From the NCBI GenBank assembly GCA_004321885.1, contig SCQK01000004.1, forward strand, positions 1-64,000: a DNA stretch of 64,000 nucleotides. The letters run 5' to 3'. Origin of the DNA: Patescibacteria group bacterium. Its GTDB lineage: Bacteria > Patescibacteriota > Patescibacteriia > Magasanikbacterales > GWA2-37-8. This document shows positions 13,587-16,500 of the stretch, in pieces (position 1 is the stretch's first letter; the number at the start of each line of letters is the position of its first letter). A program made the translations under genes and the position numbers. The notes beneath the pieces are model-generated. The model worked only from the letters and a program-made list of their open reading frames with translations. It made no database searches and was not told the DNA's origin.

Positions 13587-16500
13587 ATGCCCATCAAACG
13601 AGTTCAAAAAGGACGACTAAAACCACCTGTCATTGCGAGACCTGAAAGAGGCCGCCTGCCCGCCTCTGGCGGGAAGCAATCCCCCGCGATTAAGAGAGGG
13701 ATCGCCGCGTCGCCCCGACGTAACGTCAGGGCTCCTCGCAATGACAAAGTGAAACCCGACACGAGCGGCGGTTACAGCGCCAAAAACATCACGGTGCTGG
13801 AAGGCTTGGAGGCCGTGCGCCGGCGGCCCGGCATGTATATCGGTTCCACGGGCACGACGGGCCTGCATCATCTGGTTTGGGAAGTGGTGGACAACTCCAT
13901 TGACGAAGCCATGGCCGGACATTGCGACCAAATTGACATCGCCTTGCTCCCCGGCCACCTGGTGGAAGTGCGCGACAACGGCCGCGGCATTCCGGTTGAC
14001 ATTCACCCCCAGCAAAAAGTCAGCGCCCTGGAAGTGGTACTCACCAAACTGCACGCCGGCGGTAAATTCGGCGACGGCGGCTATAAGGTCTCGGGCGGCC
14101 TCCACGGCGTGGGCGTGTCTGTGGTCAATGCTTTGTCGTCGTACGTAAAAGCCGAAGTGCATCGCGACGGAAAAATTTGGCTGCAAGAATACAAAAACGG
14201 CGGCCAGCCGGTAAAAAAAGTGCGGGCCATTGGCCCGGCCAAAGACACAGGCACGACCATTACTTTTTTACCCGACGCGAGCGTTTTTGAAACATTGGAT
14301 TTTGACTGGAAGACAATCGTGGACCATATCCGCCAACAGGCCTATCTAAACAAGGGCGTGCTTATTTCCGTTTCCGACCGGCGCCAGGGCGAGGAAAAAA
14401 CCAAAGACGGAACGGCTCTCCCTTATCCCAATCCCTCATATCAATTTTATTTTGAAGGCGGCATTGCTTCTTATGTGCGCCACCTGAATCAAAACAAAGA
14501 ACTGAAAAACGAAACTATTTTTTACGTTGATAAAGAGACCGATGGCGTGCGCGTGGAAACCGCTTTGCAATACACCGACGAATACACCGAATCGCTGTTC
14601 GCCTTTACCAACAACATCCACAATCCCGAAGGCGGCACGCATGTGGCTGGTTTTCGCGCGGCTCTCACACGCGGCCTGAACACCTACGCGCGCAACAAAA
14701 ATATCCTGAAAGAAAAAGACGCGAACCTGACCGGCGAGGACGCGCGCGAGGGCTTGAACTGCGTGATTTCGGTAAAGGTGCGCGAGCCCCAGTTTGAAGG
14801 TCAGACTAAAGCCAAACTGGGAAACACCGAGGTCAAGACCGCGGTGGAATCGGTGTTTGGCGACGCGTTTTTAATTTATTTGGAAGAGCACCCGCGGGAC
14901 GCCGAGGCCATCGTGGGCAAGTGTATCTTGGCGTCCAAAGCGCGCAACGCGGCCAAAATTGCGCGCGACGCCATCCTGCGCAAGGGCGCGCTGGAAGGCT
15001 TTACTTTGCCGGGCAAGCTGGCAGATTGCTCCAGCCGTCACGCCGAAGAGAGCGAATTGTTTTTGGTGGAAGGCGACAGTGCCGGTGGCTGTTTTTTTGG
15101 CTCAACTAAGCTAAAATTAGCCGACGGTCGCAGTTTATCTTTCAAAGAATTGGTGGAGGAAAACAAACAAGAAAAGAAAAACTATTGCTATACAATAAAA
15201 GAGGACGGCGATATTGGCATTGAACTGATAAAAAATCCACGAATGACGAAAACAGGCGCGGAAGTGATAAAAGTTATATTAGATAATGACGAGGAAATTA
15301 TTTGTACTCCGGACCACAAGTTTATGTTAAGGAACGGAGAATACAAGGTGGCACAAAATCTGACTCCCTGCGATTCATTAATGCCTCTATATAGGAAAAT
15401 ATCTGAAAAGAGTGGCAGAATCACAATTGAAGGATATGAAATGACCTTTAACCCGAAAGATGCAAGATGGATTTTCACTCATCTACTGGCAGATGATTAT
15501 AATTTACGAAACGGGGTGTACCCCGATGATAGAGGCACCAACAAGCATCATGTTGATTTTAATAAGTTAAATAATAACCCAGATAATATAGTAAGGATGA
15601 CTCACGAAGATCATATGGCTTATCATGCCATGATGCTTCAATTTGGTTTGCACAGAGCGGATGTAAAAGAAAAATCCAAAAAAGCTCACCAATCCGAGGG
15701 GTTTAAAGAAAAAATGAGCAGAATCATGAGTACTCCGGAAATGAAACAAATGTTAAGCCGCAGAGCGAAAAAGCAATGGGAGAACGAGGAATATAAAAAG
15801 TTCATGACGCAAAAATTCTTGGAATTTTACAATTCTAATGAGGAATACAAAAAAAAGAATAATGATTTTCTTAATAAGGCGCAGGAAGAATATTGGGCTG
15901 ACAAAGCCAACAGGAAAAAACAAGCCGAAAGAGTCACTGCGCATTTCAAGGAACATCCCGAAAGAAAAAAATGGCTTAGGGATTTCGCGAAACGGGAATG
16001 GACAGACAAAAATCTGCTTAAATGGCGAGCCGGGAAAACCAAGGAGCAATGGACTGACGAGTTTAGAAGGAAACGAAAAGAAGCATATGACAAGGTCTAC
16101 TTGACCAGCAGTCTGGCTTTCGCCAAAAAGCTTCTTGAATCCAAAGAAGATATGCTGAAAAAATATGACACTGCGCGAATTAATCTTCCGAAAAAAAATA
16201 CCAACCTGTTGAGCTTGAGGACTTTAATTGACAGATTTTTCAACGGCCAAAAACAAAACTTCCTTGAGGCGGTGGCGAATTATAACCATAAAATAATAAG
16301 AATTGAAAAAGTTGCCGAAAAAATGGACGTATATGATATTGAAGTGCCGCACACGCACAACTTTGCATTGGCCAGCGGCGTGTTCGTGCACAATAGCGCA
16401 AAATCCGGACGCGATCGCGAACACCAGGCCATACTCCCCTTGCGCGGCAAGGTGCTGAACGTGGAGCGCGCGCGCTTGGACAAAATCATCGGCAACAACG

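Follow-up and report, generated by a model that had tools for sequence, protein, structure and literature searches.

The gyrB gene carried by the window analysed here, a stretch of 64 kb (64,000 nucleotides) taken from a metagenome-assembled genome of a Magasanikbacteria-like member of the Patescibacteria, is interrupted by a 435-amino acid element whose features support its identification as a class-1 intein located inside the Toprim motif of GyrB. It is likely a bifunctional intein, allelic with the Ssp GyrB intein, that splices through its HINT domain and homes through its HNH nuclease. GyrB inteins have been known since the 1990s, and this one adds an unremarkable further case to their family.

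The gyrB precursor is encoded by an open reading frame on the + strand (13587..17117), as are all of the features described below, and comprises 1176 amino acids with the intein and 741 amino acids once spliced. The precursor scores 916 bits with the NCBIfam gyrB model TIGR01059, which exceeds the cut-off, and contains the Pfam domains HATPase_c, DNA_gyraseB, Toprim and DNA_gyraseB_C. An identical protein is already deposited at NCBI (TAN34015.1), under a name that refers to a topoisomerase subunit only. The N-extein (13587..15089) ends with EGDSAGG, the part of the Toprim motif that holds the catalytic Glu, and the C-extein (16395..17117) starts with the Ser+1 nucleophile (16395-16397) of SAKSGRD and covers the remaining Toprim and the GyrB C-terminal domain. 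The intein (15090..16394) separates both stretches in frame, at a point located five residues past the catalytic Glu, and extends from Cys1 to Asn435 of the terminal GVFVHN, with Ser+1 immediately behind; its 435 codons contain neither a frameshift, a stop nor a deletion. Both the limits proposed in the first-pass annotation and its reading of a Cys start, a ...VHN end and a +1 Ser agree to the base with these coordinates and with the translation.

The intein nature of the element rests on its same-site homologues and on three profiles which all score above their curated cut-offs, as the first-pass call of an intein implied: PF14890 (77.2 bits versus 35.8), TIGR01445 (39.7 versus 24.5, covering residues 1-79) and TIGR01443 (29.7 versus 15.6, covering residues 413-435). 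The N-terminal splicing (HINT) lobe (residues 1-100, 15090..15389), delineated by TIGR01445 and by the β-strands of the structural model, begins with block A, CFFGSTKLKLADG (15090-15128), and includes block B, ..IICTPDHKFML (15285-15329), of which T73 and H76 are invariant among 42 aligned sequences. The C-terminal splicing lobe (residues 399-435, 16284..16394), recognized by TIGR01443, consists of block F, MDVYDIEVPHTHNFAL (within 16314-16370), and block G, ASGVFVHN (16371-16394), the C-terminus of the intein. In the same alignment of 42 sequences, D416, N424, F425, H434 and N435 are invariant and H423 of block F is at least 90% conserved; the splicing residues C1, T73, H76, D416, H423, N424, H434 and N435, each invariant or at least 90% conserved, all occur in this copy. 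Two more cysteines, Cys33 and Cys72, reach at least 90% conservation in addition to Cys1. The AF2 model of the intein (pLDDT 89.2) predicts a HINT fold.

The endonuclease insert starts with a small β/α unit followed by an HNH domain of the predicted β-β-α-metal type (residues 101-185, 15390..15644). The HNH-like motif pointed out earlier corresponds to HHVDFNKLNNNPDNIVRMTHEDHMAYH (residues 153-179, 15546..15626), with its conserved catalytic residues, and is aligned by Pfam HNH_3 over residues 153-177. The HNH_3 score of this intein, 16.9-17.7 bits, stays under the gathering score of 24.8, and a sub-threshold score of this kind is typical of the GyrB intein family: HNH_3 matches 30 of 54 relatives at E<=0.01 (best E 9.6e-7) and misses the other 24. 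Among the 54 inteins, H153, N161, N162, N166, H175 and H179 never vary, whereas H154 and D156 are at least 90% conserved; all eight residues are likewise at least 90% conserved in the 42 aligned sequences, and conservation within the insert peaks in the HNH segment (consensus frequency 0.71). PHROG HNH families (E 1.4e-5 and 7.9e-5) and HNH genes of phiKZ-type phages (34% identity, E 1e-4) also match. The model suggests an I-HmuI-like HNH domain. I-HmuI, the intron-encoded endonuclease of Bacillus phage SPO1 (PDB code 1U3E), shares with the insert the β-β-α-metal core, the downstream helical DNA-binding elements with a terminal HTH-like unit, and the HNH_3-type motif family, but it is a free-standing protein of 174 amino acids, 14% identical and devoid of any HINT domain. 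The roles of the individual HNH residues presumably follow those described for I-HmuI. LAGLIDADG endonucleases, the commonest type in inteins, occur in PI-SceI, PI-PfuI and the Mtu RecA intein; no LAGLIDADG match was obtained with Pfam at E<=1, and the insert is built instead from the β/HNH unit and a helical array. The Mxe GyrA mini-intein differs in another way, since it occupies the other gyrase subunit and lacks an endonuclease.

Downstream of the HNH domain, a Lys/Glu-rich helical region (15645-16139; K 18.8%, E 11.9%) encloses four copies of a helical motif of about 17 amino acids (15735..16058), delineated by hhalign, conservation and pLDDT. The copies, located at about residues 216-232, 248-271, 290-306 and 307-323, conform to the consensus PE.r..LS..AKkQW.d; hhalign relates repeat 1 to repeat 3 with a probability of 96% (E 2e-9) and repeat 3 to repeat 4 with a probability of 70%, and W230, W269, W304 and W312 are invariant among the 54 inteins. 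The first-pass description of a Lys/Glu-rich, low-complexity middle is therefore right in its first half but not in its second, for the region is made of conserved Trp-motif repeats and of helices modelled at pLDDT 78-93. The helices at the C-terminal end of the insert (residues 351-398, 16140..16283), its least conserved part, are possibly helix-turn-helix-like. The repeats PE.r..LS..AKkQW.d resemble the NUMOD3-type DNA-binding repeats, but this resemblance gained no ground from Pfam: NUMOD families yield no match when the helical region or three relatives are searched at E<=10, nor when the whole intein is searched at E<=1. Since no other Pfam family matches the array either, the repeat is left unassigned. 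Similarly, a profile of the endonuclease insert matches none of the PDB sequences at E<=10, and a DNA-binding role of the array is therefore putative. The helical arm, about 165 amino acids long with its four Trp-motif repeats, also differs from that of I-HmuI, which is far shorter and free of these repeats.

The 1199 homologues of the intein all reside in GyrB, more than 1,000 of them at the same insertion point, and align along their full length (100%) at 45-63% identity, with E-values down to 2e-157. The junction D[SA]AGG/C...H[NQ]/S[AG]K (slashes marking the intein limits) was found in 58 of the 76 genome loci fetched, from hosts as distinct as CPR bacteria, DPANN, halo- and methanogen archaea, and cyanobacteria. 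The distribution is nevertheless patchy: 113 of the 120 closest GyrBs are devoid of the intein, e.g., the relative P0122 with its uninterrupted EGDSAGGSAKQGRD, five close Patescibacteria relatives possess full inteins at the same GyrB site, and the inteins of close relatives are only 53-58% identical. The identity of the inteins does not track that of their exteins (Spearman rho 0.22, p 0.11), and a vertical descent together with the host is therefore not supported either; inteins keep about 50-60% identity whatever the distance between their hosts, CPR bacteria as well as DPANN and other archaea. Horizontal mobility of the element is supported by this patchiness and by the discordance of the identities. 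Mini-inteins (146-228 amino acids) and partly deleted alleles (342 amino acids) also occupy the site, which fits a homing-decay cycle. Jablonska et al. 2017 (PMC5714182) described a family of this type as cluster 22 of the His-Me finger endonucleases, "Gyrase subunit B intein / dCTP deaminase intein", of the HNH_3 type, to which 84 bacterial and 7 archaeal sequences were assigned. The present element matches that description; cluster 22, however, predates most CPR and DPANN genomes, and the family as retrieved here exceeds 1,000 members, many of them from Patescibacteria and DPANN. A literature search on inteins in the GyrB of CPR and DPANN returned nothing relevant.

The intein is markedly poorer in GC than its host gene, as was seen at first reading. 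The GC content amounts to 0.383 in the intein versus 0.561 in the N-extein and 0.520 in the C-extein, GC3 amounts to 0.425 versus 0.65 and 0.67, respectively, and the shift is sharp and falls exactly at both junctions. Within the 64 kb, just 1.1% of the 1305-nt windows are equally AT-rich, and just one other region besides the intein has a GC <=0.40. The proposal that this AT-richness denotes a recent acquisition is not upheld, even though horizontal acquisition itself is, owing to the patchiness and the discordant identities discussed above. With the codon usage of the host, the intein would have a GC content of 0.44, against 0.383 observed and about 0.55 in the extein, so that amino-acid composition accounts for about 60% of the drop; moreover, the intein is AT-richer than its own extein in all 54 relatives, with the present copy departing from the family regression by less than 1 SD, and some host genes deviate equally in a leave-one-out test. 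By itself the dip does not show recency, as it results mostly from amino-acid composition and, for the rest, from a family-wide trait. More generally, a GC dip over a mobile element should not on its own be taken for a recent transfer.

From these features, a plausible course of splicing and homing can be proposed. After translation, residues 1-100 and 399-435 would assemble into the HINT domain. An N-S acyl shift at Cys1, helped by T73 and H76 of block B, would be followed by trans-esterification onto Ser+1, then by cyclisation of Asn435, helped by H434 together with D416 and H423 of block F, and finally by an O-N shift. The predicted products are a GyrB of 741 amino acids with a contiguous EGDSAGGSAKSGRD and the free 435-amino acid intein. 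Either the excised intein or the precursor could then act in homing through the I-HmuI-like HNH nuclease, with the Trp-motif array and the C-terminal helices serving as a putative extended DNA-binding arm. The presumed target is an intein-less gyrB, nicked or cut at the conserved EGDSAGG/SAKQGRD coding site, a candidate junction being GAAGGCGACAGTGCCGGTGGC^AGCGCAAAATCCGGACGCGAT or its SAKQGRD variants, and repair from the intein-plus allele would copy the element into the cut gene. Homing by the HNH nuclease would thereby explain how the element spread across phyla and domains. In the literature searched, experimental cleavage by any GyrB-intein HNH domain was not found.

Of the other readings of this locus, one supposes that the intein still splices while its HNH nuclease is no longer active, the element having entered a post-fixation stage in which it is kept because imprecise loss kills gyrase. 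Endonuclease decay is indeed documented by the mini-inteins and partly deleted alleles of the same site, the HNH_3 score of this copy lies under the cut-off, and G28E, R254K, Q303E and T336V affect otherwise conserved positions. Against this, every residue of the HNH motif is intact, none of the four deviating positions is catalytic, their number (4 of 111 conserved columns) equals the family median, the 435 codons are undamaged, and low Pfam scores are common in the family; an inactive nuclease is accordingly unlikely. A different view places the element outside homing altogether, either as a domain of GyrB retained without splicing or as an intein kept for a conditional, e.g., redox-controlled, splicing that regulates gyrase. 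The activity of the host protein does depend on splicing when an intein sits in an active-site motif, and, given the conserved Cys33 and Cys72, a regulatory disulfide is conceivable. However, a retained insert of 435 residues so close behind the catalytic Glu would in all probability abolish the function of an essential enzyme, all splicing residues are conserved, and 113 of the 120 closest GyrBs function without the insert, which leaves this view very improbable. As to an assembly chimera, in which an intein from an AT-richer population had been joined via the conserved Toprim-coding flanks, it could draw on the metagenomic origin of the sequence, on the sharp GC change at both junctions and on the fact that no independent second contig with the exact protein is on record. 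But the reading frame is perfect over both junctions, the dip recurs in all 54 independent relatives, complete genomes of Calothrix isolates among them, and full inteins occur at the site in the five close Patescibacteria relatives; in addition, it is the protein sequence of the flanks that is conserved, but an assembler requires exact DNA k-mers. The chances of such a chimera are extremely small.

Beyond the bifunctional intein allelic with the Ssp GyrB intein, a broader picture can be drawn, in which a GyrB HNH intein actively circulates across domains in groundwater-type communities, with CPR bacteria on one side and DPANN or other archaea on the other, and finds its target via an undescribed tandem Trp-motif helical array. 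This picture is held to be quite unlikely as a whole, and the further step by which Cys33 and Cys72 would make splicing, and hence gyrase activity, redox-conditional is purely speculative.

The closest known system is the Ssp GyrB intein of Synechocystis sp. PCC 6803, which resides in the same host protein and has the same last six residues and Ser+1; the likeness is based on the C-terminal GVFVHN/S, the host protein and the site of the cyanobacterial relatives. Ssp GyrB counts as the founder of this intein allele, is likewise 435 amino acids long, and is reportedly the HNH intein that Dalgaard et al. 1997 described. The inteins of Calothrix PCC 7103 and 7716, Dulcicalothrix PCC 7102 and Waterburya occupy the same site, with 435-436 amino acids and 51-54% identity. 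Unlike Ssp GyrB, the present intein belongs to a Patescibacteria MAG rather than to a cyanobacterium, and it is only about 52% identical to the cyanobacterial members, with CFFGST in block A versus CFSGDT in the family consensus, and SAKS in the C-extein versus SAKQ. In Ssp GyrB, the C-intein used in S11 splitting is GVFVHN followed by Ser (PMC2794532), and the natural intein contains an endonuclease domain, the mini form being able to splice in E. coli (PMC3620165).

For TAN34015.1, the gain is one of annotation, the 1176 amino acids including the 435-amino acid intein and the mature enzyme comprising 741; beyond annotation, the element matters little. In its splicing domain, the element is closely related to the Ssp GyrB intein, which already serves as a tool in protein engineering. 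The Trp-repeat arm and the HNH nuclease of the family are without a solved structure and no biochemical characterisation of either occurs in the searched literature, and a family of more than 1,000 members offers usable material to the homing-endonuclease specialist. The structural comparison extends to phages: Foldseek aligns the model over 443-472 columns to a Hint-domain protein of Bacillus phage SP-15 (A0A127AYL6) and a Siphoviridae terminase (A0A8S5M786), with 23-27% identity and E-values of 2e-26 and 9e-23. From the length of the alignments, the whole intein-plus-insert architecture therefore appears to be common to both phage proteins, which differ from the GyrB intein by their low identity and their hosts, a terminase and a protein of unknown nature.

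The single long open reading frame 13587..17117 (+ strand) encodes a protein of 1176 residues which corresponds to DNA gyrase subunit B (NCBIfam TIGR01059, 916 bits, above the cut-off) and comprises the Pfam domains HATPase_c, DNA_gyraseB, Toprim and DNA_gyraseB_C. Exactly 435 codons (nt 15090-16394), the first for Cys and the last for the sequence GVFVHN, with Ser as the next residue, split the Toprim motif EGDSAGG/SAKSGRD; the boundaries, the initial Cys, the terminal VHN and the +1 Ser proposed in the first-pass annotation were thus all borne out. The same 1176-residue protein is deposited as NCBI TAN34015.1, from an 86,683-bp MAG contig, under the name 'DNA topoisomerase (ATP-hydrolyzing) subunit B [Patescibacteria group bacterium]', and a search with the spliced exteins identifies the host as a Magasanikbacteria-like Patescibacterium. 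The GyrB also possesses a basic N-terminal extension of ~60 residues (13587-13770), beginning with MPIKRVQKGR; this start is kept in the Magasanikbacteria-like relatives P0122, P0130, P0158 and P0181, so that the extension represents a real lineage-specific feature.

With respect to splicing, the insert was recognized by three intein models, Pfam Intein_splicing (77.2 bits, cut-off 35.8), TIGR01445 intein_Nterm (residues 1-79, 39.7 bits, cut-off 24.5) and TIGR01443 intein_Cterm (residues 413-435, 29.7 bits, cut-off 15.6), and the reading as an intein therefore held up. Blocks A (CFFGSTKLKLADG), B (IICTPDHKFML), F (MDVYDIEVPHTHNFAL) and G (ASGVFVHN/S, including Ser+1) are all present. When the intein is aligned with 41 relatives from the databases, T73, H76, D416, N424, F425, H434 and N435 prove invariant, and the conservation of C1 and H423 reaches at least 90%; the AlphaFold2 model built from this alignment has a mean pLDDT of 89.2. 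Owing to Cys1, the TxxH of block B, the terminal His-Asn pair and Ser+1, the element can be assigned from its sequence to the standard class-1 inteins. According to established intein chemistry, an N-S acyl shift at Cys1 would be followed by trans-esterification onto Ser+1, succinimide formation by Asn435 and an O-N shift, to liberate a 741-residue GyrB and the free intein. The insertion point lies five residues past the Toprim catalytic Glu, so that the unspliced precursor should be inactive and, the host enzyme being essential, splicing is presumably obligatory.

The nature of the endonuclease required more than one line of evidence. Pfam HNH_3 aligned at residues 153-177 of the intein with 16.9 bits, below the cut-off of 24.8, which leaves the HNH-like motif read in the first-pass annotation unproven by itself; the claim is, nevertheless, supported by several independent lines. 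The AlphaFold2 model contains a beta-beta-alpha unit (strands 151-154 and 167-170, helix 172-185), PHROG HNH endonuclease families match the intein (E 1.4e-5 and 7.9e-5), and tblastn retrieved a free-standing gene for an HNH protein from phiKZ-like phages (PHIKZ296, 34% identity, E 1e-4). In a set of 54 full-length genomic GyrB inteins, HNH_3 is matched by 30 members (best E 9.6e-7) and no other Pfam family by many; H153, N161, N162, N166, H175 and H179 never vary in this set, while H154 and D156 show a conservation of at least 90%. The HNH segment is also the best-conserved part of the insert (consensus frequency 0.71, versus 0.61 and 0.45 elsewhere), and the Pfam search of the intein gave no LAGLIDADG signal. 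Taken from sequence and model, the endonuclease can be regarded as being of the HNH type.

The insert also includes residues 186-350, rich in Lys (18.8%), Glu (11.9%) and Arg (8%). The description of this region as a Lys/Glu-rich, low-complexity middle stands for its composition and has to be abandoned for its complexity: it is modelled as nine confident helices (pLDDT 78-93), W230, W269, W304 and W312 are invariant in the 54 full-length inteins, and profile-profile comparison of sub-segments revealed a repeated motif of ~17 residues (consensus PE.r..LS..AKkQW.d) at residues ~216-232, 248-271, 290-306 and 307-323, repeat 3 being aligned by hhalign with repeat 1 (probability 96%, E 2e-9) and with repeat 4 (probability 70%). 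The array recalls the NUMOD3 modules occurring in other homing endonucleases, a likeness not confirmed by Pfam; no Pfam family matched residues 186-350, and the profile of the insert found none of the PDB sequences. I-HmuI, the HNH homing endonuclease of Bacillus phage SPO1, binds DNA with a helical arm, and on this model we infer that the array serves as a DNA-recognition arm. It is mildly useful to point out this Trp-repeat arm, which is unannotated and structurally uncharacterised. Assuming an enzyme of the I-HmuI type, a monomeric HNH site would nick or cut intein-less gyrB near the sequence coding for EGDSAGG/SAKQGRD, the helical arm would recognize the target, recombinational repair would copy the intein into the cut allele, and alleles already interrupted would be immune.

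It is rather unlikely that the intein still splices but carries an inactive, decaying endonuclease, since the window's copy departs from the consensus at 4 of 111 conserved columns, which equals the family median, none of the four being catalytic, and thus exhibits no sign of decay. A retained, non-splicing GyrB domain, or a conditional intein with a regulatory role, appears highly improbable, two conserved extra cysteines being the sole feature in its favour.

The distribution of the HNH-bearing intein is patchy. Among the 120 closest GyrBs of the spliced-extein search (74-83% identity), 113 are complete and intein-less, with P0122 displaying the empty site EGDSAGGSAKQGRD, and seven, including the query, contain an intein. 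Five close relatives (P0130, P0158, P0181, P0198 and P0232) possess full inteins at the same site, and their exteins are 75-81% identical to those of the window whereas their inteins are only 53-58% identical. Among genome loci with full-size inteins, intein and extein identities are uncorrelated (Spearman rho 0.22, p 0.11). Full-size archaeal inteins are 46-59% identical to the window's, and those of the sister Patescibacteria are no closer than archaeal ones at 56-59%, which suggests, on sequence identity, an exchange across domains; it is mildly useful to note that CPR bacteria share the family with DPANN archaea, the divergence being similar in both. Archaeal hosts of full-size GyrB inteins comprise DPANN, Methanosarcinales-labelled, Thermoplasmatales and halophilic species (L002, L004, L005, L016, L027, L062 and other loci of the genome scan). 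Among the MAGs with the most similar exteins, several labelled 'Gammaproteobacteria' seem to be CPR bins carrying a wrong label.

The genome scan, restricted to species-representative genomes, yielded 76 loci, 58 of which show the junction D[SA]AGG/C...H[NQ]/S[AG]K: 53 full-size inteins (413-436 residues), four mini-inteins (157-228 residues) and one partial deletion of 342 residues. Mini-inteins of 146-228 residues occur at the gyrB site in a Patescibacterium (P0201), a Woesearchaeote, Methanoperedens BLZ2 and others (intein regions from ~4001 in L068, L069 and L070, and from 2057 in L072), and the 342-residue form in a haloarchaeon (L066). These shortened forms are natural stages of endonuclease loss. 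Patchiness, identity discordance and decayed alleles fit together with a homing cycle and horizontal gain, and the element came in by horizontal transfer at some point.

The date of this acquisition is less readily deduced. As noticed in the first pass, GC is sharply lower in the insert (0.383) than in the N-extein (0.561) and the C-extein (0.520), as is GC3 (0.425 versus 0.65 and 0.67); the sliding GC profile falls to 0.36-0.42 only across the insert, and only 1.1% of the 1305-nt stretches of the 64-kb window are as AT-rich. However, the predicted GC of the intein is 0.44 under host codon usage and 0.46 under that of gyrB itself, versus ~0.55 for the extein, so that ~60% of the drop results from a K-, E- and N-rich composition. 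What is left of the deficit, at the codon level, is significant (GC3 0.425 versus an expected 0.561 +/- 0.022, z = -6.2), but a leave-one-out control shows deviations of that size for several host genes too (z down to -10.5). The intein is AT-richer than its own extein in 54/54 relatives, the GC3 deficit averaging 0.19 (range 0.08-0.35) in the 16 hosts with extein GC3 >0.5, and the regression fitted to the family predicts the deficit of the window's intein (0.234) to within one residual SD. Intein GC (0.26 to 0.59) tracks host GC (r 0.86), which indicates that amelioration occurs, and no near-identical donor was sampled, the best identity among the matches listed being 65% over part of the length only. 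AT-richness is consequently a weak clock; the horizontal part of the suggested recent horizontal acquisition stands on patchiness, discordance and decayed alleles, and AT-richness was rejected as proof of a recent date. A chimeric assembly is very unlikely, the reading frame being perfect and the same dip being seen in isolate genomes.

With the intein alone as query, 1199 proteins were retrieved at E<=1e-3; every one of the top 120 is either a GyrB fragment or an 'intein-containing DNA gyrase subunit B' (38-65% identity), and their sources are Patescibacteria, Nanoarchaeota, Woesearchaeota, Omnitrophota, Chloroflexota, cyanobacteria and others. Protein engineering makes wide use of the Ssp GyrB intein from Synechocystis sp. 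PCC 6803. It is reportedly the HNH intein of Dalgaard et al. Its C-intein GVFVHN, then Ser (PMC2794532), is identical to the end of the window's element. In its natural form the Ssp intein includes an endonuclease domain, and its mini form splices in E. coli (PMC3620165). The 2017 classification of His-Me finger nucleases contains a cluster of the HNH_3 type under the name 'Gyrase subunit B intein' (PMC5714182). The element is an ordinary further member of this well-known family, and its initial identification as a GyrB HNH intein was correct and well located. Two phage proteins, A0A127AYL6 (Bacillus phage SP-15) and A0A8S5M786 (Siphoviridae terminase), are BFVD structural matches to the whole intein with its insert (443-472 columns, 23-27% identity), so that related HNH-type inteins exist in phage genes.

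Apart from the intein, the only region of the window with GC <=0.40 is 60691-63185, which may be a small foreign island; it contains a DUF3800 protein (61336-61878, - strand), the adjoining DUF3800-II RNA (61251-61314, + strand; Rfam RF02961, 67 bits) and a 289-residue hypothetical ORF without Pfam match (61882-62751, - strand; GC 0.35, GC3 0.29). A tRNA-Ile with anticodon TAT (23838-23911, + strand; ARAGORN, Rfam tRNA 67 bits) is unusual, as in most bacteria the AUA codon is read by a CAT tRNA modified with lysidine. The class A bacterial RNase P RNA (37950-38408, - strand; 131.8 bits) measures 459 nt against a model of 367 positions and thus carries ~90 nt of insertions. Three large paralogous proteins (1814-3889, 5312-7651 and 7794-9989, all - strand), which carry three Laminin_G_3/ConA-like lectin domains apiece (Pfam E 1e-69 to 1e-88), are interleaved with two tRNA-Arg genes (4058-4131, 7514-7587) and have a GC3 of 0.46-0.49, clearly below the rest of the window (mean 0.60). 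Just upstream of gyrB, a 659-residue protein (11346-13325, - strand) with N-terminal GW(I/L)N(F/L)-type repeats, a Pro-rich duplicated segment (PPSVPPLIGEG, twice) and a weak CarboxypepD_reg domain, below the cut-off, looks like a cell-surface protein.
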